DNA of 61,569 bases, counting the filler, from Anaerolineae bacterium (lineage in GTDB: Bacteria > Chloroflexota > Anaerolineae > Epilineales > Epilineaceae): NCBI GenBank assembly GCA_029262755.1. It is 8 parts of 8 records of this genome, joined end to end, with 100 filler letters (N's around TTAATTAATTAA, not from the genome) between each part and the next. Parts side by side here need not be neighbours in the genome. Positions count along the whole stretch, not along the records: positions 21,628 to 28,948 come from JAJCYU010000036.1; 7 more parts are not named here. One strand, 5' to 3'. Positions within the stretch are counted from its first letter, which is position 1; every line of letters starts with the position of its first letter. The notes under the pieces are model-generated. The model was given only the letters and a program-made list of their open reading frames with translations, did not search any database and was not told the DNA's origin. A program made the position numbers and the translations under genes. Of the stretch, positions 6,626-36,829 are shown in pieces.

Positions 6626-9600
6626 GTGGAGCCCGCGATCACACGTCTCGACGGTCCCATCATTGATTCCCCGCGTCCCGCGCACCCCGCGCACGCCCGA
6701 GCCCGCGGCATCGCGGCTTGCGTGCTGGTCGCAGCCGCCGCGTGTATGGGCGCGGCCGCCGGTGGGCGCCCGGTGCACGCCCAGGAGACGCCGCCCGAGC
6801 CGGGGCCGATCATCGCGCCCTTGCGACGGTATCGGCTGCAGGAGACCCGGCGCAACCAGCCTTGGCGCCCCGCGCCCGGTCGCTTCGGCCGCGCGGCGGA
6901 CGTGACGAGCACACCCGACGGCCGGGTCTACGCGTTGGACGATCGGGTCGTCGCCGGCCGCGCCGCGGCCGTTCACGTGCTCGACCCGACCGGTCGGCCC
7001 TATGATCACTGGTCGGTGCAAGGGCAGAACGATCCGGTTGGCGCGGGCTACGGCTGGACGCCCAAGCGAATCGACGCGACCCCGGACGGCACCTTGCTCG
7101 TCCTGCTCCACGGTCGTTCCCAGGCGGGCGGCCTGTTCCATGTGCGGGTCGATCACCTGGACACCGAAGGGCGCGTGCTCGGCCGCTTCCAACGTGCCCT
7201 GCCGCTACCCGAGGCGTACGTCGACGTCGCCGCGGAGCCGGAGGGCGGCCTTGTGCTCGCCCGACGCGGGGCGAACCCTTGGTGCGTTGGCGCGAACGGT
7301 CTGCCCGGCCGCGACGGTCCCGGCCCCAGCCCCTACGGCATCGACCGCTACGGAGCGGACGCGCTGCGGCCCGTGTCGCCGGATGACGGCTCCGGCCCGG
7401 ACCCCGGCCCCGCGCCCGACGACGAGTCACGCCCCACACGCGTGCTCACCCCGCCCGAGCTCCGCGTGCCCCTTTCGCTCGACGTCGACGCCGCAGGGCT
7501 CATCTACGTGGCCCAACGTGACCCGGCCCCGTGTGCCCTACGAACCGGTCCACCGCCGACCCGCCCGCCGGGCTTTGGAGCCGCGCGACGCCTCCTTCCC
7601 CCGAGCGACGCATCGTCGATCATCGCGGAGGTCGGGGGAATCACAGGATTCACAGGAATCGCGGAGCCAGAGACCGTCGAGACCAGCCAATCCCTTGAAA
7701 TCGGCGAGACCGTCGAAACCATCGACATCGCCGAGACCGCGGGCCGCACGATCACCACGGACACGCGCCTCACGCGCGAAGGGGACGGTTCCGTCGAGGG
7801 CGTGCTCTTGCTCGGGCCGGATGGCCGCGTGGACGGCGCGTTGCCCTTCGCCGGTCCGCGCGACGTCGCGGTCGGTGCCGCGGGGCTCTTCGTCGCACGC
7901 CACGGCGAGTTGTTCGCAGCCCAGCCGAGCGGCGCAGGCATCGAGGACGAACCCCTGCTCACCGTGCCGCTCGGTCGCGCCCCGGGCGACCTGGATGACC
8001 CGGATCCCTTGCGGATCGACGTGCGAGCGGACGGCGCGCTCGTCGTCAGCCTCGACGATTGCTTGGCGCAAGGCGTGCTCTGGATCGATGCCGATGACGT
8101 GCGCCGAGCGGGTCCGCAGCCCGTGCGGGCACGCCTCATCGGCGCCCCGGACGCTCCCGAGCTCGAGGGGCCCGCGTGGCCGCGGCGCCTCGCGGCCGAC
8201 ACGAATCTAGCGGTGCTGCAGGGCCGGTTGCGCATTTCTGGACTACGGCCGGAGACGCAGTACGAAGCGAGCAGCCTAGCCGGGCACGACGGTCAGGCCG
8301 TGCAGGATTGGAGCGCGGACGGTACGTTGCGCGGGCAGCGCGCGGTGTGCGCCGGCGCGGGCGCGTGGCGCGCGCGCGACGTGGCCGTGGACGGCGATCG
8401 TGTCTTCACCCTACACGCGGATCGCGTGCGCCTGCGTCCCGATTTCGGTTTCCCCGCCTGGACCTTCTGGCCGGACGCGGAACCGCTGAACGCCGTCGAT
8501 CCCGCCGCGCAGGGCCGTCTTCAGGCGATTGACGCGCGCGCCGGAACCGTGATGGCCCTCGATCAGGCATCGGGCGACCTCTTGTCGCTCGACGCGCAGG
8601 GCGTGCTCATCGCGCGCATATCGGTGCACGCTCGGCCGCCGGAGGAAGAACGCGCTCCCGTTGCGCCGGGCGAACCCGCTCCGCCACCCAACCCGGATCC
8701 GGATCCCGACCCCGCCGCCATCGCCGATCTGCGCGCCCTCCCCATGGACCTGGCCCTCGGACGGGGCGAAGACGCGGTCTTCGTGGCCTTGAGCGGACGC
8801 GGCCACGTCGTGGTGCACGCAGCCGACGGCGCACGGCGCGCCGCCTGGCCTACGCGCGACGCGATTCGCGCGATCGCGACGGGGCGTGGTGACGAGCAGG
8901 ACGTGTTCATCCTCGGCCGCGGCGGCTGGGTGTATCGGCATCGCCCGGACGGAGCGCTGGTTGCGGCGTGGCCTCTGCCCGATCCCGGCGTCGAGGCCAC
9001 GGACCTTGCGGTGGACCGCGCCGGCCGGGTCTTCGTGTCCTGGGCGCGCCTGGCGCCTGCGCGTAACGCCCTCGAGCAGCGCAGCACGCCGATCCGCGGG
9101 GCGGGGGTATGGGTGTTCGTCCCAGACGATACGAGCTGGGACGAGGCGCCGCGGCAGGCGAGCCCGCCCGGTAGCTGTCTCCTCGTGCCGGACAAGCGCG
9201 CCGCGCCGCCTTCCCTGATGTTGGGCGACGAGGTCTCGGTCACGCTGACGATCGCCGGGCGCTGCCCCGAGCCGCCGGCGCCCGTCGATCTGGTGATCTT
9301 GCTCGACGCTTCGGGTTCCATGGCCGCGGGGGAATCGGACGCCCGTGCGCTCGACGCACTCCTGACCATCCTCGCGGGTCTCGATCCACGCGCGGCGCGC
9401 GTTGGGCTCGTAACCTTCGCGGAATCGGTACGCGTATTGCAGCCACCGGACCACGATCTACCGGCCGTCGCTGCGGCGGCTGCGCGCGTGCGGGCTGCCG
9501 GCGCATCGCGCCTCGCGGCCGGTCTCGAGCGGACGGCCGACCTGCTTTCCGCGGAACGCGATGCATCGCCGGAACGCCTCGACGCGCGGCGGCTCGTGCT

Positions 9601-10795
9601 GCTGCTGACCGATGGTGCGATCGAGGACGATCCCGCCCTGTGGCCCGCCCACGACCGGTTGCGCGCCGAGAACGCGGAACTGCACGTCCTGCGCTTCGCC
9701 AACGAGGAGCTCGATTTCCGTCACCAGGTCACGATGCGTAGCCTCGTGGTGGACGAAGACCGTATCTTGTCGGATCCGCCCGACGAAGCGATCCGCAAGC
9801 ATCTCTTCGCGTTGACCTATCGGGCGAGGACCCGCGGCCTGCTGGCCTCCGCCCGAATCGTCGACGTGCTGCCCGACGACATGGCCTACGTGCCCGACAC
9901 GGCGCGTCCACCGGCGCTCTATGACACGGCCACGCGCAGCCTCATTTGGGACGTTGCGGCGCGCCCCGGACAACCGATGCTCGGAGCGCCGACCCTCACC
10001 TACCGCCTTCGCCCCCTCCAGGCTGGGCTGCGCCCGACCAACGTACTCGCTACGGCGGCGATCACCGATGCCTTAGGACAACCGGCGACGTTGCGCTTCC
10101 CAGTACCGGAGGTCGAGGTGCTCGCTCCACGGTGGACGTTGCACATGCCCGTGCTTGGCCGCTCTGCTTGTCTGCGGCCGCCGCCCGCCTTGGATGTCGT
10201 CATCACGCTCGACACCTCACGGTCCATGGACCTGCCCGCGGGTGATCCGAACGATCCGTCTCGTAGTCGGCTCGACGCGGCGCGCGAAGCCGTGCTCGTG
10301 CTCGCGCACGATCTGGCCGCGCAGGGCGATCAGCCACCGGGTGGAGCCCGGACCTCCGCCCACCGGATCGGCGTGGTCGCCTTCCACGAGACGGCGCGCG
10401 AGGTCCTGCCGCTCGGGGACGATCTCGCTCTGTTGCGCACGAGCTTGGCCGCGCTCCGGACGGCGCCGGGATCGCGCCTCGACGCGGGGCTGCGCACCGC
10501 AGGTGCGATGATTGCGCGCTCCGATCGTTCCGCGGAACGGGTCGTCGTGTTGCTCACGGACGGTCGACAAGGCGGTGGGCCGGCCGGCGCGCGCGCCGCG
10601 CGCGATGCGGCGCGCGCACTGGATGCGCGTCGGATTACGATCGGCTACGGTCCGCGCGGATCCATCGACCTTTCCCTGCTGCGTGACCTCGCAGGCCACC
10701 ATGACGATGCCATGTACGCACCCGACAGCGCATCGCTGCGCGTGCTCGCCGGCCGCCTCGCCGGCCGCCTCGCTTGCCCGGATGGCGCGCCGTGA
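6626..10795 (+). CDS. Large secreted NHL-like beta-propeller protein with two VWA domains
   Basis: Signal-like segment ending PVHAQ, NHL-like repeats (DVAVD, DLAVDRAGRVFV), two MIDAS motifs (DASGSM...LTDG; DTSRSM...LTDG) and a DUF11-like VDVLPDDMAYVP segment. Start uncertain. Confidence 0.75.
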   Translation: MEPAITRLDGPIIDSPRPAHPAHARARGIAACVLVAAAACMGAAAGGRPVHAQETPPEPGPIIAPLRRYRLQETRRNQPWRPAPGRFGRAADVTSTPDGRVYALDDRVVAGRAAAVHVLDPTGRPYDHWSVQGQNDPVGAGYGWTPKRIDATPDGTLLVLLHGRSQAGGLFHVRVDHLDTEGRVLGRFQRALPLPEAYVDVAAEPEGGLVLARRGANPWCVGANGLPGRDGPGPSPYGIDRYGADALRPVSPDDGSGPDPGPAPDDESRPTRVLTPPELRVPLSLDVDAAGLIYVAQRDPAPCALRTGPPPTRPPGFGAARRLLPPSDASSIIAEVGGITGFTGIAEPETVETSQSLEIGETVETIDIAETAGRTITTDTRLTREGDGSVEGVLLLGPDGRVDGALPFAGPRDVAVGAAGLFVARHGELFAAQPSGAGIEDEPLLTVPLGRAPGDLDDPDPLRIDVRADGALVVSLDDCLAQGVLWIDADDVRRAGPQPVRARLIGAPDAPELEGPAWPRRLAADTNLAVLQGRLRISGLRPETQYEASSLAGHDGQAVQDWSADGTLRGQRAVCAGAGAWRARDVAVDGDRVFTLHADRVRLRPDFGFPAWTFWPDAEPLNAVDPAAQGRLQAIDARAGTVMALDQASGDLLSLDAQGVLIARISVHARPPEEERAPVAPGEPAPPPNPDPDPDPAAIADLRALPMDLALGRGEDAVFVALSGRGHVVVHAADGARRAAWPTRDAIRAIATGRGDEQDVFILGRGGWVYRHRPDGALVAAWPLPDPGVEATDLAVDRAGRVFVSWARLAPARNALEQRSTPIRGAGVWVFVPDDTSWDEAPRQASPPGSCLLVPDKRAAPPSLMLGDEVSVTLTIAGRCPEPPAPVDLVILLDASGSMAAGESDARALDALLTILAGLDPRAARVGLVTFAESVRVLQPPDHDLPAVAAAAARVRAAGASRLAAGLERTADLLSAERDASPERLDARRLVLLLTDGAIEDDPALWPAHDRLRAENAELHVLRFANEELDFRHQVTMRSLVVDEDRILSDPPDEAIRKHLFALTYRARTRGLLASARIVDVLPDDMAYVPDTARPPALYDTATRSLIWDVAARPGQPMLGAPTLTYRLRPLQAGLRPTNVLATAAITDALGQPATLRFPVPEVEVLAPRWTLHMPVLGRSACLRPPPALDVVITLDTSRSMDLPAGDPNDPSRSRLDAAREAVLVLAHDLAAQGDQPPGGARTSAHRIGVVAFHETAREVLPLGDDLALLRTSLAALRTAPGSRLDAGLRTAGAMIARSDRSAERVVVLLTDGRQGGGPAGARAARDAARALDARRITIGYGPRGSIDLSLLRDLAGHHDDAMYAPDSASLRVLAGRLAGRLACPDGAP

Positions 10796-10942
10796 CGTGC
10801 CCAGTCCGGCTATCCATAGACCGCTTGCCGACGTCGGAAAGTCGATTGATCGCGGTGTCCGAACCCGCTAGGGTTGCGACGAGCCGTCACGTCGGCTGGC
10901 CGCGCGACGTCCTGACTTGATGCGATCGATCCTACCCCAAGG

Positions 10943-13263
10943 ATGAGCTCCATGCGCGCCACCACGCTTGATACCAATCACCCCATCGACGAAGGGCTCG
11001 CGGAGCCGGCGTTGCGCGATTCACGCGCCGCCGCCGTCCTTGGCCTCCGCGTGCGCCGCCGAAGGGTGGCACGCATCGCTGCGGCGCTGGCCCCGTTGGC
11101 CGTACTCGTGGGGCTCACCGGCGCGGCGCACGCGCCGATCGCGGCGCAGGGGACGAGTGCGCCCCCCGACGAGGGCTCGACCTACGCGCATGTCGACACC
11201 TATCAGGACACGCCATGGGACCTGACGGCCGGCCGCTTCGGCCGTACGGGCGACGTAAGCTCCGCGCCGGGCGGCACCATGTACCTGCTCGACACGCGCA
11301 ATGTCGCGGGTCGGCCACGGTCGCTGCACTGGCTCGATGCCGAAGGCGCGCCGCAGCAGGTCATGGCATTCGATGCGGAGCTGACGCTGCGCAACCGGCA
11401 CCAGCCCATCCGAATGGATGTGGGCTTCGACGGCACCATCCACGTGCTCAGCGAAGGCGCAATCGTGCCCATCAGCGGGCGCAACTACTACGAGCATCGG
11501 ATTTGGCGACTGCGTCCGGACGGCTCCGAGATCGACCACTTCGACGTCCAGGTCGAGTCACCGCGACGCTATGTGGACATCGCGGTTCGGGACGATGGCC
11601 GCATCTACGTCGTGCGCGTCAGCCGCAACCCATGGTGCGTGCAACCGAACTCGCCGCCTTTGGAGAACGTTCCGGGCGAGGAGCCGCAATACAGCATCGA
11701 TGTCTTCGCCCCGGACGGCACGCTGCTCGAGCTCTTGATCCCGGATCCGCTCCGCGTTCCGACCGGAGTCGATGTCGCGCGCGAGGGAACGATCTTCATC
11801 ATCAACCGCGTGCCCTCGCCGTGCGCGCAGGGTAGTGGCCCTCCCGGCGCGCCGCAGCCCACCGCGCGCCCGAGCGACGCCGGTGGACGGGCGGTGGACG
11901 AAGGTCCGCCGGATGTCCATCCCTTCGCCATTGAGCCGGATGCCGACACGGTGGCGGCGCTGCAACAAGCCGGCGGTCCGGTCAACGGTGTGATCGTTGT
12001 CGAGCCGGATCACGTCTACCGCGAGACCGTCCCGTTCTTTGGGGCGGACGATGTCGCGGTGGGGCCGGCCGGCGTATACCTGTCGCGCAACGTCGAGCTG
12101 TTCCGACTGCTCGAAGATGGCGGCAGCGGCAAAGGCAGGGTCGAGGAAAGCCCGATGTTCGTCGGGCCAACGGGTCACGTGTACGCCGGCTTCCTGCGAC
12201 GCATTGTGTTCTTCTTGGATGTACCCGCGGACGGCCGCCTCGTGGCCGGCATGAACCATTGTTATTTCCAAGGCTACGTCGGCATCGACGAGCCCGACGC
12301 GCGGCCCGCGTCCGCACGCCTGATCGGCGCGATGGACGCAGTAGAGCTGGAGGGGCCCGCCTATCCCGTTCGGGTGGCCGCGGCGGATGAGCTCGCCGTT
12401 TTGCTGGGACGCATGGACATCTTCGGCCTGCGTCCGGAGCAGCAATATCGGCTGACCAACTACACGACCGAGGCGCAGAACGTGCAGCGCTGGTCGCTGG
12501 AAGACCCGCCCCAGGGCGGCGATCTCCAGTCGCAGCTCGGCCTCTGCCCCGACGCGGACATCTGGTTCGGCTCGGACAACTGGCTGACCCGCGATATCGC
12601 CATCGACGGCCGCGACGTGTACACGATCGACCCCGAGTTGGTCCAGCTACGCCCGGACAACGGGTGGCCCGCATGGACCTATTGGCCGGGCTTCCTGCTG
12701 GACGACCCGGATCAGTCGAGCTTCCTTGGCGCGGCCGCCGCGGACGACGGGCGCGTCGCCGTCCTCGATCTGGGCGCGGAGAGCATCGTGGTCGTGAGCC
12801 GCGAAGGCGAGCTCCTCGAGAGTTGGCCCTCCAACGTGGGTGGCGCCGTGGGACACCCGGTCGATCTGGCCTTGGACGCCAACCGGATCTACATCGCGGA
12901 CCAGGCGCGTGGACAGGTCGTCGTCACCGACCTGAAGGGCAACGTTTTCGATAGCTGGCCGACCCACGACGGGCCACGCGCCCTTGCGATCGGCCCGACG
13001 GGCGATGTCATCGTGCTCGGTCGCGGCGGCTTCGGATTCCACTACAGCCCGACGGGCAATCTCTTGGCCAGCTGGCCGATGCCCGATCGCGGCGCCCAGG
13101 CTCGCGACATCGCCGTGGGCGCGGACGGCCGGGTCTACGTCAACTTCCTGCGTCTGAACACACCCGTGCAGCTGGGCTCGACCTCGTACACGAACATCGA
13201 GGCCGGCGGCGTCTGGGTCTTCGAGCGCACGGGCCGGCCTCTCGGCCCGCCACCGCCGCCGCG
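10943..13263 (+). CDS. Secreted NHL-repeat protein, paralog of the upstream gene, truncated by contig end
   Basis: Colinear motifs shared with 6626..10795 (GRFGR.DV, NPWCV, LIGA.DA.ELEGPA, GVWVF). Runs into the N linker. Confidence 0.7.
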
Positions 13264-13363
13264 NNNNNNNNNNNNNNNNNNNNNNNNNNNNNNNNNNNNN
13301 NNNNNNNTTAATTAATTAANNNNNNNNNNNNNNNNNNNNNNNNNNNNNNNNNNNNNNNNNNNN
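13264..13363. other. Artificial contig linker (N44-TTAATTAATTAA-N44)
   Basis: N runs around a six-frame stop cassette; identical at 7 places in the window. Confidence 0.97.
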
Positions 13364-14169
13364 ATTTCTTCGTCGGCGGGCTGGCCGGTATGGCGGCGGC
13401 CATCGCGCTGGTCGCGCGTTGGACGCTCGCGGACCCAGCGCTCCCAGTCGCAGCGCTCGCATTCGCCTTCGCTGGTGCGTTGATCTCGCCCCTGCTGCTG
13501 ATCAGCGACCTCGGTCGGCCCAAACGCTTCATCTACATGCTGCGCGTGTTCAAGCCACGCAGTGCGATGTCGATGGGCGTGTGGATCCTCATGGCCTTCA
13601 GCGCAGCGGTCGCTCCGGCCTTCGCCCTGTCATGGTGGGCCTGGGCGCGCCCGGAATCGGCGCTGGCGGCGGTGTGGCTGCCGTGGCTTCTATGGCCCGC
13701 GCTCGTCGGCGCCGCAGTGTTCGGTTTGCTGCTTGCGACCTACACGGGCGTGCTCCTCGGTGCGACGGTCGTGCCTGCGTGGCGCGTGCATCATCGCCTC
13801 CTGCCACTCCATTTCGGCATCGCCGCGCTCGGCTGCGCCGCGGCGGCTCTGGAGATCGCGGGTTTCCGCATCGCCTCGCTCGCGGCACTGGGGTGGCTGG
13901 CGGCCCTTGTCGAGACGATCGTTCTGGCGTGGATCGAGCTGCGCCCGCGGCCCGCCGACGCGGCGCTGCGCCACGGCGCGAGCGGCCGGCTGATGCGGGT
14001 GGGCGGCGCGACGGCCGGGCCGGGCGCGTTGCTGGCGCGGGGGCTGCTGGGTCCGGTGCCGGCCGCGGTTGCGTTCCTGGGCGGTACGCTGGCCGTGCGC
14101 TACGGCTGGTTGGCGGCCGGCAAGGCCTCGGCGCTGGATTCGCATGCCGCGCTCGACGCCGAGGATTGA
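13364..14169 (+). CDS. NrfD/PsrC-family membrane anchor subunit (5'-truncated)
   Basis: Frame open from the contig edge (FFVGGLAG); LLISDLGRPKRF, SAMSMGVW and YTGVLLGATVVPAW motifs; multiple TM helices. Confidence 0.8.
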
Positions 14170-21627: not shown

Positions 21628-22783
21628 GCGCGAGCAATTCGGCGACCTTGTGGACCGCTACGGTCCCTTTCTCATGCACGGGGATCCGCCGGCCGATGCC
21701 CTCGTGGCCGCCTTCGCCCAACTGCCGCCCGGCCGCGGCCGCAAGCTCCTCACGCAGGCGTTGGAGCACGGGGTCGATAGCGTCCGCCGTCCTCCGCCCG
21801 CGCTAGAGGCTTTCTTCCGCGAGGTGGAGGACGTGCCCGTGTGGGTCGATTGGCCGCAGCTCGAGCGGGGCGGCGAGGTTGTGCTGCGCGCGGGTCCTGT
21901 GGCGTTGCTCGTGCTGGAGACGCTGGCGCTGCCGCTCTCCTATGCCTCGGCCAGCGGGAACAAGCCGCTGGCCTTCTCGGGGAGGCTCGTGCAGCGGGCG
22001 TATCGGCGGCTGTCGGAGACCGTGCGCTTTGTGGTCGAGACCTGCCGTCCCGAAGGGCTCCAACGCGGGGCGGACGGGTACAACATCACGCTCCGCGTGC
22101 GCCTGATGCACGCGCAGGTCCGGCGGCTGCTCCTGCGTAGTGAGCGATGGGACATGGCGCAGTGGGGCATGCCCATCAACCAGGCGGACATGGCGGCCAC
22201 CAACATCTTGTTCTCCGCGTCCTTGATCCAGGGCATGCGCCGGATGGGCATGCGTCTCTCCGACCAAGAGGTCGAGGACGTCATCGCGCTGTGGCGCTAC
22301 GCGGGCACATTGATGGGCGTCGATCACCGGCTGTGCGTCACGACGCTGGCGGAAGGCCGGCGCATGGGCGCGGTCGTGCTGGCCACGCTCGAGCCCCCGG
22401 ACGCGGACTCGTGCGCCCTCGTCGAGGCGCTCATGGAGGTGCCGCACCACGCGGCTTCGAACGCGAGTGAGAAAGCCGTAGCACGTTGGTATGTCCCGCT
22501 TTCTTACGCCGTGTCTCGTTGGCTGATCGGCGACACGTTGGCGGACCAACTCGCCTACCCGCGTTCCCGCTGGTCCTACGCCGTGCCGCCCGTTCGAGCC
22601 GGGCTGTGGGCGTGGTCAACCGGTCGGCGTGCAATTCCCTTCCGCCACCGGCTCACCCGCACGGCGAGCACGCGCTTCTGGGACGAGATGACCGCCGACG
22701 GCCACGCCAGCCTCGCCACCGCGTTCCGCCTCCCGAACCGTCTGGACCGACTCCACCGTGGAGGTCACGATGACACCCCCTAG
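21628..22783 (+). CDS. Oxygenase MpaB/Lcp (DUF2236) family heme protein (5'-truncated)
   Basis: GDPPAD, VPVWVDW, RRLSET, RVRLMHAQVR (heme-ligand His motif), WGMPINQADM, LWRYAGTLMGV. Confidence 0.85.
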
Positions 22784-24284
22784 GCTCGAATTCCTCACCG
22801 CGGAGGACCTGGCGCTGCTGGAGCGCGACGCACGGTCGCGAACCTATGCCCAAGGCGAGGTGGTGATCGCCGAGGGCGTCGTGCCCGACGCGCTCTTCCT
22901 GATCCGGGACGGCACGGTCTACGTGCAGCACGAAGGCGTGACCGTGGCCTGCCGGGGCCCGGGCGAGATCCTCGGTGAGATCTCCTTCCTGGAGCAACGC
23001 GGAGCCAGCGCATCGGCCGTGGCGGCGGGCGAGGCGCGCATCGACCGGCTCGACGTCGCGACGCTGCGTAGCCGTCTGTCCGCGCACCCGGACTTCGCCG
23101 CCCGCTTCTACCGCTCCCTGGCCGTCCGGCTGTCCGAACGCCTGCGCGAGACGTCGCACATGCTCTCCCGCCTGCGGGGCGATCTCCAAAGCGGCCGGCT
23201 GCACGCTCACCGTGCGTCGGCCGGCCAGCTCACCGCCCCGCTGATCGCTCCCGAACTTGCCGAAGCCATGTCCTCCATCCGCCGCGATGTGCGCGGCGCG
23301 GAGGCCGCGCTGCAGGCGCGTAGCCTCAGCGCGTCCGCGGCGCAGGAAGCGATCAACGCGGCCTGCGAGAGCATCGTGGCCGAGCTGGTCGAACACACGG
23401 GCGACGCCGACCTGCTCGAGCTCGGCTACCGAGACCTGCTGGCCTTCCGCGATCCCGAGCACTTGCGCGAGGGCGTCGGCGGCTACGTGTTCCGCGAGAG
23501 CTTCGCGCTGCTCATGCGCAGCACCACGCTGGCCCGCTGCTACGCCAAACCCGCCGGCGTACCGGAAGACCACGAGACCATGCAGGCCATCTACGACGCC
23601 GACCCCTTGGGCGACGGAGCCATCGGTCCGCTCGTCGACCGATGGTTCCTCGATCGGCCTTTTTGCCGCATGCGCCGCGGCGTACGGCAGGTCATGGCGG
23701 AGCGTCTCTCCACGCTCGTCGCCGCGCACGAGCAGTCGGTCCACCTTTGCGATCTGGCCAGCGGCACGGCCCGCGTGCTCTTCGACGTCCTGGCGACGGA
23801 GCCCGGGACGCGCATCCACGCCACGTGCATCGACGTGGACCCCGACGCGCTGCGTCTGTCGGCATCGGAAGCCGCCGCGGCGTCGGACCTGACGATCGCC
23901 GGCCGGATGGCCTTCATAAACGCCGACGTCGCTACCCTACGCGCAAGCTCCAACATACAGCTCGCGCCCCAGCACATGATCTACGGCGTTGGCCTGCTCG
24001 AGTACTTTAGCGACGAGGACGTCGTCGACCTCCTCGACTGGTGCCATGACCATCTGGCCCCCGGCGGTACGGCGCTGTTCAGCCAACTATCGTCGACCAA
24101 TCCCGACCTTCCGCTGCTGGTGCACATCGTCCAGTGGCGCCTGCACCCGCGCGACGAAGCGGCGCTCGCAGCACTGTGTGCACGGTCGGCGTTTGGAAGC
24201 ACGGCGGAGATTGCCACCGTGGAGGACGGCAACGCGTTGCTCATGGCCATTGAAGTCGCCGATACTGGCTTGACGAAGCCCTAA
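22770..24284 (+). CDS. Cyclic-nucleotide-binding domain fused to a class I SAM methyltransferase (PhcB-like)
   Basis: N-terminal CNB domain (GEVVIAEG...LFLIRDG...GEILGEISFL); C-terminal RCYAKPAG...IYD...GPLVD, DLASGTAR, IDVD, GLLEYFSD, HLAPGG; GGAGG RBS; overlaps the upstream gene. Confidence 0.75.
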   Translation: MTPPRLEFLTAEDLALLERDARSRTYAQGEVVIAEGVVPDALFLIRDGTVYVQHEGVTVACRGPGEILGEISFLEQRGASASAVAAGEARIDRLDVATLRSRLSAHPDFAARFYRSLAVRLSERLRETSHMLSRLRGDLQSGRLHAHRASAGQLTAPLIAPELAEAMSSIRRDVRGAEAALQARSLSASAAQEAINAACESIVAELVEHTGDADLLELGYRDLLAFRDPEHLREGVGGYVFRESFALLMRSTTLARCYAKPAGVPEDHETMQAIYDADPLGDGAIGPLVDRWFLDRPFCRMRRGVRQVMAERLSTLVAAHEQSVHLCDLASGTARVLFDVLATEPGTRIHATCIDVDPDALRLSASEAAAASDLTIAGRMAFINADVATLRASSNIQLAPQHMIYGVGLLEYFSDEDVVDLLDWCHDHLAPGGTALFSQLSSTNPDLPLLVHIVQWRLHPRDEAALAALCARSAFGSTAEIATVEDGNALLMAIEVADTGLTKP

Positions 24285-24302
24285 ACCGCGGCGACAAGTG
24301 TC

Positions 24303-24947
24303 TCAACCCGACGGCGGCACGTACCGCCCCCGCGCGTCGAGGTAGCTCATCCATAGGATCCTGGCCGCGACCGAACGCCAAGGCGTCCACGTGCCCGCGA
24401 TGCGCAGCTGCTCATCCTTCGTCGGCAGCGCGTCGAGGCCTTTGAGGTCCCGCAGCGCGGCCGCCAACGCAAGATCGCCCGGGGGCCAGACGTCCGGTCG
24501 TCGAAGCGCCATGAGGTAGTAAACGTCCACGCTCCATGGTCCGAGTCCGGGAACCTCGAGCAACATCGAGCGCCCGACCTCGTCCGGAGCGGCCGCGACC
24601 GCGGCGAGGTCGAGGCGTCCGTCCAGCACGCGCGTGGCCAGACCGTGGCAGTAGCCCGCCTTCTGCCGGGTGAGCCCATGTTCGCGCAGTCCAACCGGTC
24701 CGGCCTTAAGGACGGCCTCGGGTGTCATCCCTCCCAGCTCCCGGCTCACCCGCCGGTACAAGGTTTGCGCCGCGGCGAGCGACACCTGTTGCTCCAGGAT
24801 GATCTGCACGAGGGTCGCAAAGCCGGGCTCCCGCGCCCACATCGGCGGTACGCCGAGGCGATCGACGATCGCGCCGAGGTCTGCGTCGATCGCCGCCAAC
24901 CACCCGACCGCCTCTCGGAGCGATGAAGGGGTGAGGGAATCGCTCAC
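24303..24947 (-). CDS. DNA-3-methyladenine glycosylase II (AlkA-like, HhH-GPD)
   Basis: IILEQQVS, GLTRQK, HhH VPGLGPWS, RPDVWPPGD, WTPWRSVAARILW. Confidence 0.88.
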   Translation of the reverse strand: MSDSLTPSSLREAVGWLAAIDADLGAIVDRLGVPPMWAREPGFATLVQIILEQQVSLAAAQTLYRRVSRELGGMTPEAVLKAGPVGLREHGLTRQKAGYCHGLATRVLDGRLDLAAVAAAPDEVGRSMLLEVPGLGPWSVDVYYLMALRRPDVWPPGDLALAAALRDLKGLDALPTKDEQLRIAGTWTPWRSVAARILWMSYLDARGRYVPPSG

Positions 24948-25540
24948 CCGCTTCGCTCACGTAGCAGCGCACCGACCCGCAGCCGTAGCGCGGGCAGAAG
25001 CTCCGCCTCGAACCATGGATTGCGGCGCAACCAGAGGTTGTTGCGCGGGCTTGGGTGCGGCAACGGAAGCGTGTTCGGCCACCGCGTACGCCACGACCGC
25101 ACCGTCGCGGTTACGGTCGAGTGCGCGGCTCCAAAGTAATGTGCTTGCGCATACTGCCCGATCACGAGCGTCAGCTCCACGTGATCCAACTGGGCGATCA
25201 GCTGCTCACGCCACGCGGGAGCACACTCCGGCCGCGGCGGAAGGTCGCCCGACGTACCCGTGCCGGGGAAGCAGAAGCCCATCGGCAGGATCGCGAACCG
25301 TTTGGGATCGTAGAATTCCTCGCGCGTCACGCCCAGCCATGCTCGCAGCCGCTGTCCGCTCGCGTCGTCGAAGGGAACGCCCGACGCGTGAACCTTGCGC
25401 CCGGGTGCTTGCCCCGCGATCAAGATGCGCGACCCGGGATGCGCTTGCACGACCGGCCGTGGACCGAGCGGCAAGTCGCTGCAGATCGCGCAAGCCCGAA
25501 CGTCGGCAAGCAGGGCATCGAACGAATTCATGGCGCCCAT
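24944..25540 (-). CDS. Uracil-DNA glycosylase superfamily protein
   Basis: CAIC, ILIAGQAPG, PFDDASG, MGFCFPG, LPHPSPRN; GTGA coupling to the AlkA-like gene. Confidence 0.88.
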   Translation of the reverse strand: MGAMNSFDALLADVRACAICSDLPLGPRPVVQAHPGSRILIAGQAPGRKVHASGVPFDDASGQRLRAWLGVTREEFYDPKRFAILPMGFCFPGTGTSGDLPPRPECAPAWREQLIAQLDHVELTLVIGQYAQAHYFGAAHSTVTATVRSWRTRWPNTLPLPHPSPRNNLWLRRNPWFEAELLPALRLRVGALLRERSG

Positions 25541-25636
25541 GATCTAGGCATTCGGCAAGGCATGGCAAACACAATGCTCCACGAGTCGCCTCGCAGCCGA
25601 CGACCGAAGCCTCTTCCAGAAGAAACTCACCGCCGG

Positions 25637-25708
25637 CCGGTCGCCACAGGTCGCCGCTGCATCCGCCGGTCGCCCCAGGTCGCCCCGGTCGCCCCAGGTC
25701 GCCGCTGC
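25637..25708. repeat. Intergenic array of GGTCGCC heptamers
   Basis: GGTCGCC at 25639, 25649, 25668, 25678, 25687 and 25697 (spacing 10, 19, 10, 9, 10). Confidence 0.75.
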
Positions 25709-25746
25709 GCCCCGGCGCATATTGCCGCAAGTCGCCGTGACCCCAC

Positions 25747-27213
25747 CTACGACGGCTCGCGTGCCTCCGCATCCTCCGCGACCTCGCGGATCATGCCGCG
25801 GAAGATGAGCGCGTGCACGGGGTAGAGGCCGTACCAGTAGAGCAAACCGGCCAGGCCGTGCGGGGCGAAGAATGCCGTCTGCACGAGCCGCGTGCGTCCG
25901 GATGCGTCCGGGTCCTCCTCCGCGTCGAACTGGAGCCAGGCGCGGCCGGGCACCTTCATCTCCGCACGTAGCCGCAGCATCGCGTTGTCTTCGATCGCCT
26001 CGACGCGCCAGAAGTCGAGCGAGTCGCCGACGCGGAGGCGTTCCTCATGGCGACGGCCGCGGCGGAAGCCCGCCCCGCCGACCATGCGGTCCACGATGCC
26101 GCGCACGCGCCACGCCCAGTTGGCGTACCAACCTTGCCGTCCGCCGAGGCTGCTGAAAGCGTGAAAGACCTCCGCGGGCGCCGCCGCGACGAGCCGCTGC
26201 CGTCGCTCGATGATCATGCCGCGGTCCGACGCGAGCTCCACCGACGGCGTGTCGTGCCGGTTCGACGCGAGCGCGTCGCTCCACGCGGTCTCGACCTGGC
26301 CCGCGTCCAGCGACGCGAGCGCCGCCCGCACGGCCTCGCGGTAGCTCAGCAGCTCGATGTCCGGGAACATCCCCGTTGCGCGATCGTCACGCACGATCAC
26401 CTCGTTGCGCAGGCCCACGATCAGCGGCCGGGCGATGCGCGAGGGGATCGGGGTCACCCAATGCACCCAGTATCCGGAGAGTTTCGGGGTCAGCACCGGC
26501 ACCGGCTGCAGCCTGCGCTTCAGACCACGCTCTGCGGCGTAGCCGAGCATCATCTCCGCGTAGGTCAGCACGTCACGCCCGCCGATCTCGATGATCTCGC
26601 CGGCACTCTCCGGGCTCTCGAGGACGGCCGTCAGGTAGTCGAGCGCGTTGCTCACGCCGATGGGTTGCACGTTCGTGTAGACCCAGCTCGGGCAGATCAT
26701 GATCGGCAACCGCTCGGTCAAGTGACGGATCATCTCGAAGGACACGCTGCCCGAACCCACGATGATCGCAGCCCGCAACTCCGTGACGGGCACACCCGAC
26801 TCGCGCAGATAATCGCCGGTCTCATGTCGCGACCGTAGATGCGGCGACAAGTCGGCCTCCGGGTTGCCGAGCCCGCCCAAGTACACAATGCGCTGCACGC
26901 CCTGCTCCCGGGCCGAGTCGCCGAAGCTGCGTGCCGCCGTCCGGTCACGCTCGTGGAAGTCGTCGCCGCCCTGCATGCTGTGGATCAGATAGTACGCGGC
27001 GTCGATCCCCTCCAACGCCGCAAGAAGCGTGGGCGGCTCGAAGGCGTCGCCGCGCACGACCTCGACCGCGTCGAGCCAGTCCCGCCCTTGCAGGCGCGCC
27101 GGATCGCGCACCATGACGCGCACGCGATAGCCCTCCGCCAGGAGGCGCGGAACGAGGCGACCGCCGATGTAGCCGGTGGCGCCGGTGACCAGTACATGGT
27201 TGAGGGAGGGCAT
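25747..27213 (-). CDS. Atypical SDR/NAD(P)-binding oxidoreductase with C-terminal DUF2867 (YbjT-like)
   Basis: VLVTGATGYIGG, YYLIHSM, HLRSR, SGSVSFE, DFWRVE, LRAEMKVPGRAWL, GLLYWY; AAGGAG RBS before ATG 27213. Confidence 0.9.
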   Translation of the reverse strand: MPSLNHVLVTGATGYIGGRLVPRLLAEGYRVRVMVRDPARLQGRDWLDAVEVVRGDAFEPPTLLAALEGIDAAYYLIHSMQGGDDFHERDRTAARSFGDSAREQGVQRIVYLGGLGNPEADLSPHLRSRHETGDYLRESGVPVTELRAAIIVGSGSVSFEMIRHLTERLPIMICPSWVYTNVQPIGVSNALDYLTAVLESPESAGEIIEIGGRDVLTYAEMMLGYAAERGLKRRLQPVPVLTPKLSGYWVHWVTPIPSRIARPLIVGLRNEVIVRDDRATGMFPDIELLSYREAVRAALASLDAGQVETAWSDALASNRHDTPSVELASDRGMIIERRQRLVAAAPAEVFHAFSSLGGRQGWYANWAWRVRGIVDRMVGGAGFRRGRRHEERLRVGDSLDFWRVEAIEDNAMLRLRAEMKVPGRAWLQFDAEEDPDASGRTRLVQTAFFAPHGLAGLLYWYGLYPVHALIFRGMIREVAEDAEAREPS

Positions 27214-27604
27214 GGGGGCTCCTTGCAGCCGTTGGGTTACGCGAGGTAACGCGGGACCGAACGGATAGGCGACGGGTTTGGGCGGGGTCTGGGCAATGGC
27301 ACGGGGCTGGGGAACGGGACAAGGACCGGTTTGTCGAACACGTCCTACGGGACTCCCGTGGCCGATGATCTTACGCCGTCGTGCGAATCGGCGGCGCCGA
27401 GTGGCCGGCGGACGCCAAGATCGTCCCGGGCTATGAGACGGGAGGCTCGGCACCGATTCGTGGGCATCGCGCGCAAAGCATCCACGCGGAATTCCAAAAT
27501 CCAACGGCATCACCCACCCGCTCTCACGGTATACTATCGGCGGCGTCCGACGCGTTGCGCGTGGGGCGCCTTCGCGGGACTGATCCCGCTCTGAGCCGGC
27601 CGCC

Positions 27605-28159
27605 ATGTCCGATATCTCGTCCGTCGAGACCCAGTTGCGCAGCACGTTGGACCGGGTCGACGGGTGGCTGAAGTTCGCCGAAGCGAAGAATCTCGCCATC
27701 ATCGCGCTGAGCGGTTCCGCGACAGCCGCGCTCATCGGCTTTCTGCGTGGCAGCGATCTCGGCGTGATCACGGCCACCGTGATCACCGCGGCCGAGATCA
27801 GCTTCCTGCTCGGGCTCGCCACGGCGCTACTGGGCTTCATGCCGCGTACCGCCGTCCTCGACGTGCTGGCGCGTCGGCCGATGGACCCGGATCCCGACGC
27901 GGACAACCTGCTCTTCTACGGCGACCTGCAGAAATACGCACCGCAAGCCCTGGCCGAAACGATCGCGCGACGCTACGCCTCCAATGATGCCTATCGCGCC
28001 AGGGAACACCCCCTGCACCTCGACGTGGCGGCGCAGATCGTGGCCAACGCGCGCATCACCGTGCGCAAGCTGCGGGCCTTCACGATCGCGGCGCGCTTCG
28101 TATTGCTCGGCGTGATGCTGGTGATGGTCGGCCTTATCACGCGGCTCTTGCTGGGGTGA
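27605..28159 (+). CDS. Pycsar-type transmembrane effector (PycTM/DUF5706-like)
   Basis: 184 aa with 3 TM helices; WLKFAEAKN, NLLFYGD and QIVANARITVRK motifs match this family as I recall it. Confidence 0.8.
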   Translation: MSDISSVETQLRSTLDRVDGWLKFAEAKNLAIIALSGSATAALIGFLRGSDLGVITATVITAAEISFLLGLATALLGFMPRTAVLDVLARRPMDPDPDADNLLFYGDLQKYAPQALAETIARRYASNDAYRAREHPLHLDVAAQIVANARITVRKLRAFTIAARFVLLGVMLVMVGLITRLLLG

Positions 28160-28948
28160 GCGAGGACCGCGCGCTGCCGCGCGGCACCGTCGCGTTCCTC
28201 TTCACCGACATTGAGGGCAGCACCGCGCTATGGGAACGCGATCGCGCAGGCATGGAATGCGCCGTCGCCCGCCACTTGGAGTTGCTCAAGGCGGCGGTCG
28301 TGGCACACGGCGGCTATCCCTTCAAGGTGGTCGGCGACGCCGTGCAAGCGGCCTTCGACACCGCGCCCGCCGCCATCGCCGCCGCCGCGGACGCCCAGCG
28401 CGCGTTGGCGGCGGAGCCGTGGACGGAGCTGGGTGGTCGGCCGCTTCGGGTGCGCATGGCGGTGCACGTCGGCCAGGCGGAGCCCGCGGATGGCGACTAC
28501 CTTGCGCCGAGCCTCAACCGGCTGGCCCGGCTGCTCGCAGCGGGACATGGGGGCCAGGTCCTCGTCAGCCACGCCGCGGGCTCGCTCGCGGAAGGCCGAC
28601 TTCCCGAGGGCGCTGTGCTGGTCGACCTCGGCGTGCATCGCTTGCGCGACCTGCTTGCGCCCGAGCGTATCCACCAGCTGCGTGCGCCCGGTCTCGAGCA
28701 CGACTTTGCCCCGCTGCGGACCCTGGACGCGCGAAGCCATAACCTGCCCATCGCGCCGACGCCGCTCGTGGATCGCGTGGTGGAGCTTGCGGACGCGACG
28801 GACATGCTGCGGGCCGGGACCGCCCGCTGGCTGACCCTGAGCGGCCCCGGGGGCGTGGGCAAGTCACGTCTTGCACTACAAATCGCCGCCGACCTCATCG
28901 ACCGCTTCGCCGACGGCGTGGTGCTCGTGCCCCTCGATGCGGTACGCG
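28156..28948 (+). CDS. Class III nucleotide cyclase fused to a STAND/NB-ARC-type ATPase (3'-truncated)
   Basis: FLFTDIEGST, KVVGD, RVRMAVHVG, DY...NRLAR, GGQVLVS, then NLP...LVDR and Walker A GPGGVGKS. GTG start overlaps the effector stop (GTGA). Confidence 0.9.
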
Positions 28949-29048
28949 NNNNNNNNNNNNNNNNNNNNNNNNNNNNNNNNNNNNNNNNNNNNTTAATTAA
29001 TTAANNNNNNNNNNNNNNNNNNNNNNNNNNNNNNNNNNNNNNNNNNNN
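28949..29048. other. Artificial contig linker
   Basis: N44-TTAATTAATTAA-N44. Confidence 0.97.
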
Positions 29049-33562: not shown

Positions 33563-36500
33563 GTGCCCGTGGCGGCGGACGTCAAGTCGAGGCAATCACC
33601 GGGTCGCGGTGTCCTAGGCGGGTTGAGTTGGCAGTTGCTTACGCGCTGGCGCGCCTACGCGACCTACCTTGAGACCATGGAGCAAGTGCTCGGGACCTCG
33701 GAACTGCCCGGAATCGGTTCCGTCCAGCTCGAAGACACCTTCGTGCCCCTACGGCTGCGACCGTGGGACGCGAAGCTGGCGAGCGCGCGTTTCGCTCCGC
33801 AACCCGACCTACCGCACACGACCTTGCCGGATGTCATCGCTACGCATGAGCGCATCGCGTTGATCGGACCGACGGGCATCGGTAAGAGCGCGCTGCTTCG
33901 TTGGTTCGCTTTACAACGGATCCGCGATGCGCGCCAGGCAGGCAGACGCGTGCTCGTGCGAGAAGGCGGTTTCGCGTCGCTCCCTATCTACGTTCCGCTA
34001 ACGGACTCAGACGAGAATGCCGATCTGGTAACACGAGCGGCAAACGAGCTCAGCAATGCAGGCTTCGACGGCGGCGACACGTTCTTGCCTGCTCTGCTGG
34101 AGGGACAACGTGCCACGCTGCTCTTCGACCACCTAGACACGCGCCCTGTTCATGTCCGACGCGCCCTGGCTCGCAAGATCGTCGATTTCGTAGCGCAGTA
34201 TCCCGGCAACCGGGTCGTCGTGGCGCTGCGCGACCCGGCGGACGCCACGTGCCTGGAAGGCTTCGATACCTTCGAGGTCGCCGGCGTAGATCCGGACAAA
34301 GTGGAAACGCTCGCGGCGCGTTGGGGCTTTGGACACATTGCCGATCAAAGCGGCTTCCTGCACGTTGTAGAGCGCATGCCCCTCGTTCGCTCTCTCGTCG
34401 CACGTCCAGGCTGGCTGGCTGCCGGACTTGCCCACGTGGGCGAAGACCGCATTCGCGCTTTCGACATCGTGGAGGGCTTCGTCAGACACGTCGAGCCGAA
34501 CTCGGACAACAGCGAGGGCTGGCGAGCACTCGCCTGTGCGATGCATACCGCGCGCGACGCTACCGGTGAAGCGAGCCAGGTCCCTTCCGATCGGCGTGAG
34601 TCCGGTCTTCTTTGGTGGTTGACCAACGATCGCTTCACGTTCGTCCACCCGGCCGCCCAAGCCTACTTCGCGGCCCTCTCCGCGACACAGACCACAGAAG
34701 AAGAGCCGATCGCAAGTTGGGGCGCTCGTGCCGGCGATCCCTGGTGGGACCCTGTTATCGTGTTGGCCATCGGACATCTCAGCCAGACGGACGCCGTATT
34801 GCTAGTGGAGTCCATCTTTGCGGAAGGCGAACCACACCTTGCCGCCTTGGCATTGGCTGAAATGCGCGAACCACCAGCGGACCTGAGCGAGCGGGCCCAG
34901 ATCGCCCTTCTCGATGACATGGCGGTCTCAGGTGGGGGCCGCGGAGACCGAAGAGCAGCCATCGCGCTCACGGGTCTGGTCGGCGGCGAGAGCGTCGGCC
35001 GCGGCGGCGTCCTCGCACCCGTCCTCGGCGCCCTCGATCACGGTGAGGGCGAAGGCCGCGTTGCGGCAGCCCGGGCTTTGGGCCGCCTGGCGGATCCAGC
35101 GGCCATCGCCCCCTTGCTCACCGCGCTCGGCGATCGTACCGAGCGGGTGCGCCTCGCGGCTTCCGATGCGCTTGCGGCATTCGGCGAACGCACGCTGCAG
35201 CCGCTCGTTCGTCAGCTCAACGTTCCGGACGAGAATCTGCGCCAGGCTGCCACCCGTGCATTGGCCCGCCAGGGTGCGGCTGCCGTTCCGGCCCTCGTCA
35301 AGCTCCTCGATTCTACGTCGGGCGCCGTCCGACTTGAGGTCGCAGATACGCTCGCCGCCATCGGAGCGCCCGCGGTGCCCGCCCTGGTGCGCGTCGTCGC
35401 GAGCGACATGGCATATGACGAGCGCGAAGTCGCCCGAGGCGAGGCCGCAGCCATAGCCTTGACCAAGATCGGTGCGCCGGCTGCGCGGGCGCTCGTTCCG
35501 TTGTACGCCGACTCCGATCCAGCACACCGGGAACGGGTGGTACGTATCCTGCGCGATATGGGCGCCGTTGCGGCCGATGCGCTCGGCGCGACCGTCAAGG
35601 ACACGCGCAACGGATACAGTGCGCAAGCCGCCGCCATCTTGGGCATGTTGCCCGAAGTCGGGGGTACGGCCGCCACACATCTCGTCGTCGCTTTGGCTGA
35701 CGATCGATTCGAAGTGCAGGACGAAGCGCGGCGAAGCTTGGGCAGCCTTAAGGGCGATGCACGCGATGCGTTGGTCAAGGCTCTCGACGCCGACAGCGCC
35801 TCCGTTCGATGGGAGGCTGCCCAGATCTTGTTGCGGCTGCCGGATCCGCCGACGGACCAACTTGTGGACGTGCTCGGCCAACGATTGGAGTCGCGCGAAG
35901 TTGCCGAACGCCGCCAAGCCGTCGAGGCCCTGGCGCGCCTCCCTGCGGGCGCGGTACGCCCGTTGATCGAACGAGCGGTCGGCGATGATGACCCGCTCGT
36001 GCGGCGTTCCGGCATTCGCGCGCTCGGGGCGCTGGACGATCCGGAGGCTATGGAGACGCTGCGCCGGCGTTGGGGCGAGGAGACCGACACGCAAGCGGCC
36101 CTGACCATCCTTGAGATGCAGGCAAGCATCGACCCGGCCGGGGCGGTCTCGACGTTGATCGAAGCGCTGACCGCAGAAGAGGCCCTGCTGCGCGGTGCCG
36201 GCGCCGAATTGCTGGCCGATGTAGGCGAGCCGGCGGTCGTACCGCTCGTGGAAGCGCTCTTCGCTCGTCCGGGAGAAATCGACCGCGAGGGCGCATTGCG
36301 CGTGCTGGAACGGGCCGGCGTCGGCGCGCGATCGGGGGGCCACGCGCCGCCCAACCTCGCACGGGCCGTCCACCGAATGTTGGTCGAGCCGCTGGACGTC
36401 GAGGAGCTCGTCTACCTTGCCACCACGATCGAATGGTGGCCGCCCGCCCTCGAACTGCACCGCACCTTCACCACCGTGCGCCAGTTCCTGGACTACGACA

Positions 36501-36729
36501 CGCTCGGCGGTATCGCCGGTGCGGAAGCCGAAGTCGAGTGGATCGACGAAGGCGCGGAAGGCACGATGTGGCTGAACCCGGCCGCACAGCGAGCGTTGCG
36601 CCAGGTGCGGCTGATCTCGCAGGCCGTGCAGTATCACAATCGCGCGTCCAAGCGCAGCGCCAAGGAAAAAGGCCTGCTGACCGCCACCGCGCGCGTCAAC
36701 GAACTACACGCGATGGTCGGCGATCTCGG
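33563..36729 (+). CDS. NACHT-type NTPase with a long PBS-lyase HEAT-repeat array (3'-truncated)
   Basis: LEDTFVPLRL, Walker A GPTGIGKS, LPIYVPL, LLFDHLD, FVHPAAQAYFAA, WWDPVI, then many VRxAAAxALG/AVPALV repeats. Start uncertain. Confidence 0.8.
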
Positions 36730-36829
36730 NNNNNNNNNNNNNNNNNNNNNNNNNNNNNNNNNNNNNNNNNNNNTTAATTAATTAANNNNNNNNNNNNNNN
36801 NNNNNNNNNNNNNNNNNNNNNNNNNNNNN
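36730..36829. other. Artificial contig linker
   Basis: N44-TTAATTAATTAA-N44. Confidence 0.97.

Follow-up and report, generated by a model that had tools for sequence, protein, structure and literature searches.

A PycTM-Family Membrane Protein Gene Overlapping a Cyclase–STAND Gene in Chloroflexota: A Candidate Variant of Pycsar-Type Systems

Introduction

The Pycsar system, reportedly described by Tal et al. in 2021, is said to combine a cyclase, PycC, with an effector that in one type is PycTM. To our knowledge, how Pycsar-type cyclases sense infection is not known. Here, we describe a locus in which a gene of the PycTM family overlaps a gene for a class III nucleotidyl cyclase fused to a STAND NTPase (cyclase–STAND). 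The locus lies in a stretch of 61,569 nucleotides from Anaerolineae bacterium (phylum Chloroflexota; GCA_029262755.1), hereafter the window. The window consists of contigs separated by N spacers; the contig under study occupies positions 21628-28948 (JAJCYU010000036.1), and an N spacer begins at 28949. In an original prediction, the pair had been put forward as a candidate new cyclic-nucleotide defense or signaling system.

The window pair resembles Pycsar in that its effector belongs to the same family (PF18967, PADLOC PycTM) and in that the two adjacent genes form an operon with a cyclase of class III fold. It differs from Pycsar in the order of the genes, with the effector gene first, and in the cyclase, which is not a PycC and keeps the Lys/Asp pair of purine (adenine)-type enzymes. 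Furthermore, cyclases of the window type are fused to NB-ARC and TPR regions, which would provide a built-in, dedicated sensor.

A second relative is Pucsar (PucC with PucTM or PucTIR). In passages of a recent preprint (bioRxiv 10.64898/2026.08.12.744502), the effector PucTM, a relative of PycTM, is hexameric, linked to cGMP and has three membrane helices, the PucsarTM phenotype is abortive-infection-like, and the EcPucTM hexamer has a channel of ~15 Å. The window pair is similar in its purine cyclic nucleotide, which is a prediction here, and in its three-helix effector of the "pJV1-spdB3" family; in contrast, the Pucsar cyclases of these passages stand alone and make cGMP, whereas the window cyclase is STAND-fused. 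The same passages predict an immune function for a clade of cyclases that are fusions with STAND NTPases ("Immune clade 1"), in which a cyclic nucleoside monophosphate (cNMP) cyclase domain is joined to a NACHT or AP-ATPase STAND NTPase, an architecture that the window protein shares. The text passages of the preprint contain no explicit pairing of STAND-fused cyclases with the three-helix effector, which its Figure 1A and Table S1 may show, and no other paper examined in our literature search describes a PycTM plus cyclase–STAND pair. Both the effector family and the immune prediction for STAND-fused cyclases are already in print, which weakens the original claim of a new system; what stands is the pairing, which by its gene content appears to be a new variant.

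Mycobacterial-type proteins of the Rv0386 kind are said to consist of an adenylyl cyclase, an ATPase, TPR and LuxR regions. The order of cyclase, STAND and TPR is the same in the proteins described here, but no GerE/LuxR helix-turn-helix was found in the full-length homologues from loci L004, L027 and L078 (our labels), and we know of no Rv0386-like protein that is paired with PycTM. Avs and bNACHT proteins likewise place a STAND ATPase between an N-terminal output domain and a C-terminal repeat sensor. Unlike in these, the output here would be a second-messenger synthase with a separate effector rather than a directly acting nuclease, protease or TIR, and PADLOC matched none of its curated Avs or NACHT models to the same three homologues, only a generic TPR model (PDLC01169). 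"System 4" of Kaur et al. 2020 was also considered and rejected, since EACC1, the membrane protein of that system, has only one membrane helix in the relevant passages of that paper (PMC7159879).

The PycTM and Cyclase–STAND Genes

The pair lies at the end of the contig and comprises the following features:

27605..28159, + strand: PycTM-family membrane protein gene, 184 aa (PF18967, PADLOC, AlphaFold model)
27686..27751, + strand: hydrophobic helix 1, residues ~28-49, after the WLKFAEAKN motif (model helix 3-49); putative membrane helix by its sequence
27764..27832, + strand: hydrophobic helix 2, residues ~54-76 (model helix 54-76); putative membrane helix
28076..28147, + strand: hydrophobic helix 3, residues ~158-181 (model helix 136-183); putative membrane helix
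28156..28159, + strand: GTGA overlap, read from the sequence, of the PycTM stop codon (TGA, 28157-28159) and the cyclase start codon (GTG, from 28156); predicted translational coupling
28156..28948, + strand: 5' part (264 codons) of the cyclase–NB-ARC–TPR gene; the open reading frame (ORF) ends at the contig end
28156..28725, + strand: predicted class III nucleotidyl cyclase domain, adenylyl-type (PF00211, catalytic residues)
28843..28866, + strand: Walker A P-loop GPGGVGKS, putative start of the STAND NTPase module (weak Pfam matches)

When 27605..28159 was searched with hidden Markov models, PycTM models matched above cut-off. The ORF scored 29.4 bits against PF18967, for which the gathering score is 27.2, and its PADLOC matches were the CBASS-type "2TM effector" (PDLC00668, 1e-30) and PycTM (PDLC02364, 1e-20). 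The AlphaFold model, built on 23 homologues, was all-helical with a pLDDT of 93.7 and had long helices at residues 3-49, 54-76 and 136-183, which fits a protein with three membrane helices. This model agrees with the description of the family in passages of the preprint, with three helices in the membrane and a helical region in the cytosol (bioRxiv 10.64898/2026.08.12.744502). The three-helix PycTM protein of the original prediction was thus upheld. All 124 homologues of the window PycTM contain PF18967, and the WLKFAEAKN motif was invariant in 23 of 23 PycTM sequences. Among solved structures, there were no matches to PycTM in a sequence-profile search at E up to 1, nor to its model in a Foldseek search of the PDB at E up to 0.001. 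A plasmid search with PycTM gave a single match, a Parageobacillus "Pycsar system effector".

The GTGA overlap was present as originally described. The cyclase domain scored 23.9 bits against Guanylate_cyc (PF00211; cut-off 21.9) and is followed by a linker and then by the Walker A motif, in keeping with the predicted fusion of a class III cyclase to a P-loop STAND module. In the visible P-loop part of the window ORF, the matches to AAA_16, NB-ARC and nSTAND3 were weak and sub-threshold; in full-length homologues, NB-ARC exceeded its cut-off of 23.5, with 29.9 bits in L004 and 39.7 in L078. Intact homologues (L004, L078 and L027) are 900-993 aa long and run from Guanylate_cyc through NB-ARC/AAA to TPR (TPR_12, MalT-like). 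TPR/MalT-like repeats occur in the L004, L027, L078 and L001 homologues, and the window gene ends before that region. The C-terminal sensor had been noted as lost at the contig end, and a tblastn search of the window contigs with two full-length homologues indeed found only the 264-aa piece. Recovery of the whole gene from reads, which had been proposed, did not succeed: the contigs of the only sequencing run that covers most of the stretch, which may be the source sample, were short, with a depth of ~5, and gave no useful extension of the cyclase gene. No RNA run covering the stretch was listed.

Six residues, D18, K57, D61, D114, N121 and R125, were invariant in all 12 aligned cyclase homologues. 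In class III cyclases, D18 and D61 correspond to the metal-binding Asp residues, K57 and D114 to the Lys and Asp that specify adenine, and N121 and R125 to the transition-state residues. Among solved structures, the one nearest to the L004 cyclase domain was the Ma1120 cyclase from Mycobacterium avium. Against the PADLOC models for PycC, the best E-value of the window fragment was 0.04, and full-length L004, L078 and L027 gave no match at 1e-5; 30 neighboring short cyclases matched down to 1e-118. The cyclase domain is 13-20% identical to the PycCs that adjoin other PycTM genes, and these have D, S or N where the cyclase–STAND family has its invariant Lys. These results support the predicted assignment of the window cyclase as an adenylyl-type enzyme, with its catalytic residues kept, that falls outside the PycC clade. 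The invariant Lys57 and Asp114, set beside D, S or N in the PycCs, argue against a cyclic pyrimidine (cCMP or cUMP) product; the predicted product is most likely a 3',5'-cyclic purine nucleotide, cAMP. As had also been predicted, there is no separate PycC: no further cyclase was found on the visible contig 21628-28948.

A plasmid search with the cyclase gave seven matches; family members with 38-49% identity occur on Sinorhizobium and Mycobacterium plasmids. A Mycobacterium plasmid homologue, 40% identical over 264 aa, is annotated as "LuxR family transcriptional regulator".

Recurrence of the Pair

PycTM relatives were collected from species-representative genomes with a pattern scan that finds only homologues keeping the WLKFAE[AT]K or DNL..G motifs. 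It yielded 161 confirmed relatives, and the 80 best were retained. Neighboring genes were classified with tblastn, Pfam and PADLOC, and a cyclase–STAND gene was counted as adjacent if it lay on the same strand, directly downstream and within 400 bp. A cyclase–STAND gene was directly downstream at eight of the 80 loci (L001, L002, L003, L004, L014, L022, L027 and L078), and the four most similar PycTM loci among the best 80 of 161 were all in this group. At two further loci, a cyclase–STAND gene was found 1.3 kb downstream (L005) or 6 kb upstream (L011) of PycTM. Stand-alone PycC adjoined PycTM at 30 of the 80 loci. Another 13, of which 12 are cyanobacterial, adjoin conflict-system-type proteins (VMAP-C, FGE-sulfatase-domain, iSTAND, EAD6, WD40 and TPR).

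A census of the class Anaerolineae, to which L001 belongs, found PycTM in four of 201 sampled genomes, and all four carriers have the pair; two of them are new loci, in which the cyclase–STAND gene is full-length and uninterrupted. PycTM was present in one of 151 genomes of the class of L078 and in 23 of 101 genomes of its family (one unpublished genome, G360, included). A locus from the family census, L198, has a cyclase 1.8 kb from PycTM. In total, 11 adjacent and two near pairs were found among 33 loci of the PycTM clade. The intergenic gap, taken from the coordinates, is ≤30 nt in nine of the 11 adjacent pairs, and the closest relative, L001, has an identical GTGA overlap. The flanking genes vary between pair-bearing loci. 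The PycTM/cyclase junction is also covered by a metagenome contig of another study, which shows 28 differences in 454 nt.

In the PycTM tree (81 rows), a Chloroflexota/Thermomicrobiota clade of 28 rows (SH-aLRT 99) contains all 10 cyclase–STAND-associated rows, the window and L005 counted, and none that is linked to PycC. Within its Anaerolineae subclade (support 100), five of five rows are linked to cyclase–STAND. The cyclase tree (111 rows) has a 30-row clade (support 97) that contains all nine linked copies, together with 18 unlinked copies and three for which the upstream sequence was too short to judge. The linkage label changes three to four times on this tree, and none of 500 shuffles was as clustered. 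The linked cyclases form the groups {window, L001}, {L002, L003, L027}, {L004, L014, L022, with L005 beside} and {L078}, which mirror the PycTM tree. The two gene trees broadly agree, and we read this pattern as one ancestral operon that was co-inherited, with paralogues that duplicated away and with losses of either partner. That PycTM and cyclase–STAND are adjacent by chance is unlikely, and the caveat in the original prediction that the pairing could be fortuitous loses its force with the recurrence at 11 adjacent loci and the agreement of the trees.

Some loci depart from the simple two-gene arrangement. At L078, the order is BKACE (beta-keto acid cleavage enzyme), PycTM and two tandem cyclase–NB-ARC–TPR genes (8549-13926). 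On the tree, the tandem copies pair with each other as closest relatives (support 97), which indicates a recent duplication. At the Thermomicrobiales loci L005 (1363-2709) and L198, the 1.3-1.8 kb between PycTM and cyclase–STAND had no Pfam match, and the cyclase ORFs continue without a stop for 84-164 codons 5' of the cyclase domain.

Lesions in Linked Pairs

Three of the 11 adjacent pairs carry lesions: an in-frame TAG in the cyclase–STAND genes of L001 and L014, and a frameshifted PycTM in L027. The two TAG codons (L001:10151-10153 and L014:5315-5317) are from different orders and occupy neighboring columns of the alignment, where the NB-ARC/winged-helix part meets the TPR part, with homology resuming past the stop. 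The six other linked cyclase–STAND genes that reach this site have no stop there; neither do the unlinked relatives with ≥600 codons, four of which have early stops elsewhere. The TAG codons could be independent inactivations, could yield a truncated, sensor-less product or could be read through. In L027 (8001-8508, equal to G005:C46:21011-21554), PycTM is split between two frames, residues 4-53 and 55-185, which is a frameshift or an assembly error. The patchy distribution and the lesions in three of 11 adjacent pairs fit a costly accessory system.

Proposed Mechanism and Alternative Explanations

We tentatively read the pair as a two-gene module of Chloroflexota, in which a PycTM membrane protein is co-translated with a cyclase–NB-ARC–TPR sensor enzyme and a role in biological conflict is favored, a reading to which we give somewhat less than an even chance. 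The TPR region would bind a ligand, upon which the STAND (NB-ARC) module would exchange its nucleotide and oligomerize. Oligomerization would then pair the cyclase domains, which would be active only as dimers, and these would synthesize a 3',5'-cyclic purine nucleotide, of which cAMP is the most likely candidate. On the model of EcPucTM, a hexamer with a channel, the nucleotide would act on a PycTM oligomer, so that the membrane would be opened or perturbed and growth would stop. In a narrower form, an NLR-like STAND sensor with no killing domain of its own would switch its fused cyclase by induced dimerization and send cAMP to a separate PycTM pore, as a purine-based, sensor-equipped relative of Pycsar confined to Chloroflexota; this form is possible but doubtful.

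A conflict or abortive-infection role is slightly preferred over ordinary signaling. By analogy, the STAND and TPR architecture is typical of immune sensors and suggests such a role, as do the only characterized PycTM relatives, which are the effectors of Pycsar and Pucsar. The patchy distribution of the pair and its presence in changing contexts also fit.

A number of observations weigh against this reading. The pairing is one-sided, in that most cyclase–STAND relatives occur without PycTM. A metagenome scan with a 12-sequence cyclase profile yielded 537 or more relatives, and 78 loci with 43-65% identity were retained; among the 66 with ≥700 bp of upstream sequence, none had PycTM upstream, and the same PycTM profile found PycTM in 80 of 80 positive control loci. 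Likewise, none of 16 cyclase–STAND paralogues in four PycTM-bearing genomes was linked to PycTM. The family is large, as the original prediction had stated, with 3, 1, 10, 5 and 2 full-length copies per genome. The presence of many unlinked paralogues in the same genomes goes together with a predicted product, cAMP, that is a common messenger, and the two combined would make cross-talk dangerous for a suicide effector. No member of the pair's clade was seen on plasmids in the PycTM and cyclase searches, and PycTM–cyclase or other fused forms were absent from a search for PycTM proteins of 323-2000 aa, which is weak evidence. At 10 of the 80 PycTM loci (Thermomicrobiales/Chloroflexia), a BKACE gene is followed by PycTM with no cyclase nearby, an arrangement that looks like vertical, stable inheritance. 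Finally, neither the flanks of eight pair-bearing loci nor the window contig contained known defense genes; the flank genes have a housekeeping character (lycopene cyclase, MFS transporter, carbamoyltransferase, acyltransferase, oxidoreductase, ferritin-like and glycosyltransferase). The comparison of gene neighborhoods thus gave a divided answer to the original prediction: effector and cyclase–STAND recur as a unit, but not in the company of defense genes.

The same wiring of a STAND-gated cyclase, cAMP and PycTM could instead serve a physiological role, with PycTM as a non-lethal, cNMP-gated channel or regulator, a cue sensed by the TPR region, and the pair as one output among many in cAMP-rich Chloroflexota. 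This explanation is unlikely, if only moderately so. It would account for a product predicted from the invariant Lys/Asp pair to be a general messenger, for the many paralogous cyclase–STAND–TPR genes per genome, for the housekeeping flanks and for the BKACE–PycTM order, which is stable in 11 loci; a methyltransferase with a cNMP-binding domain on the same contig (22758-24284) also points in this direction. It sits poorly with the patchiness of the gene (4/201 in the Anaerolineae class, 1/151 in the class of L078 and 23/101 in its family), the unrelated contexts of the pair, the nonsense or frameshift lesions and the phage-defense function of the only characterized PycTM relatives. That PycTM might not act downstream of the nucleotide at all, and would be a physical partner of the STAND protein that anchors it or senses membrane damage upstream of it, while the cyclase output goes to other receptors, we consider improbable. 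The tight translational coupling, which suggests matched amounts of the two proteins, would suit such a partner; so would the nucleotide-binding place in PucTM, which is unresolved in the passages of the preprint (bioRxiv 10.64898/2026.08.12.744502), and the cyanobacterial PycTM genes, which stand beside VMAP-C, iSTAND, EAD6 and FGE-sulfatase-domain proteins and had no cyclase in the scan of their adjacent genes. However, the 30 of 80 PycTM homologues beside a stand-alone PycC represent the classical arrangement of messenger and effector, and the absence of PycTM fusion proteins from our search also speaks against a physical partnership. It is very improbable that the genes are mere chance neighbors without a functional link. 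The sheer number of cyclase–STAND genes, in a large paralogue family of which none of 82 other members was PycTM-linked, would favor coincidence, but the adjacency recurs at 11 loci that belong to several orders and differ in their flanks, L001 has the same GTGA overlap, the PycTM and cyclase trees are congruent, all four Anaerolineae-class carriers have the pair, and the only full-length cyclase–STAND gene of one genome (G002) is the PycTM-linked copy.

With the conflict reading preferred, the pair would link STAND/NLR sensors with cyclic-nucleotide second messengers in bacterial immunity, and as a sensor-equipped relative of Pycsar it would show one way in which Pycsar-type systems can sense phage, namely with a STAND receptor fused to the cyclase. 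The fusion of the cyclase to a recognizable receptor (NB-ARC and TPR) would make the sensing step experimentally tractable. If the role is physiological, the PycTM family would also serve as an ordinary, cAMP-controlled membrane output, which would be a caution against calling every PF18967 gene a defense effector.

Neighboring Genes and Other Observations

Besides the pair, the contig carries genes for an MpaB/Lcp-like oxygenase, a methyltransferase, two DNA glycosylases and an SDR/DUF2867 protein. The methyltransferase (+ strand) consists of an N-terminal cyclic-nucleotide-binding domain and an S-adenosylmethionine (SAM)-methyltransferase domain, and lies 3.3 kb upstream. Neither the methyltransferase gene nor the glycosylase genes of contig 21628-28948 are beside the pair at the other loci compared. 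The SDR/DUF2867 gene (25747-27219, - strand) lies 5' of the PycTM gene and is divergent from the pair, as predicted; its start at 27219 was placed by the position of the Pfam domains. It is the sole neighbor on the window contig that recurs beside the pair elsewhere, once, in L004. A simple scan of 27000-28948 found no sigma-70-like promoter and no terminator. Between the divergent genes lies:

27220..27604, no strand: intergenic region from the SDR/DUF2867 gene to the PycTM gene; presumed promoter region (ORF map)

Two groups of PycTM loci have other neighbors. In Thermomicrobiales/Chloroflexia genomes, PycTM immediately follows BKACE, with an adjacent cyclase in only one of 11 cases (L078), at L006, L007, L009, L010, L017, L020, L024, L025, L028, L029 and L078. 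In the cyanobacterial loci L013, L019, L031, L040, L057, L059, L062, L068, L071, L073 and L077, the gene next to PycTM encodes a VMAP-C, FGE-sulfatase, iSTAND, EAD6 or WD40 protein, all of which are components of conflict systems in passages of Kaur et al. 2020 (PMC7159879).

On a different contig of the window, the ORF listing contains a 1072-aa ORF (33563-36781, + strand) that has long repeats rich in Ala and Leu and a P-loop reading GPTGIGKS; it may be another STAND-type protein.

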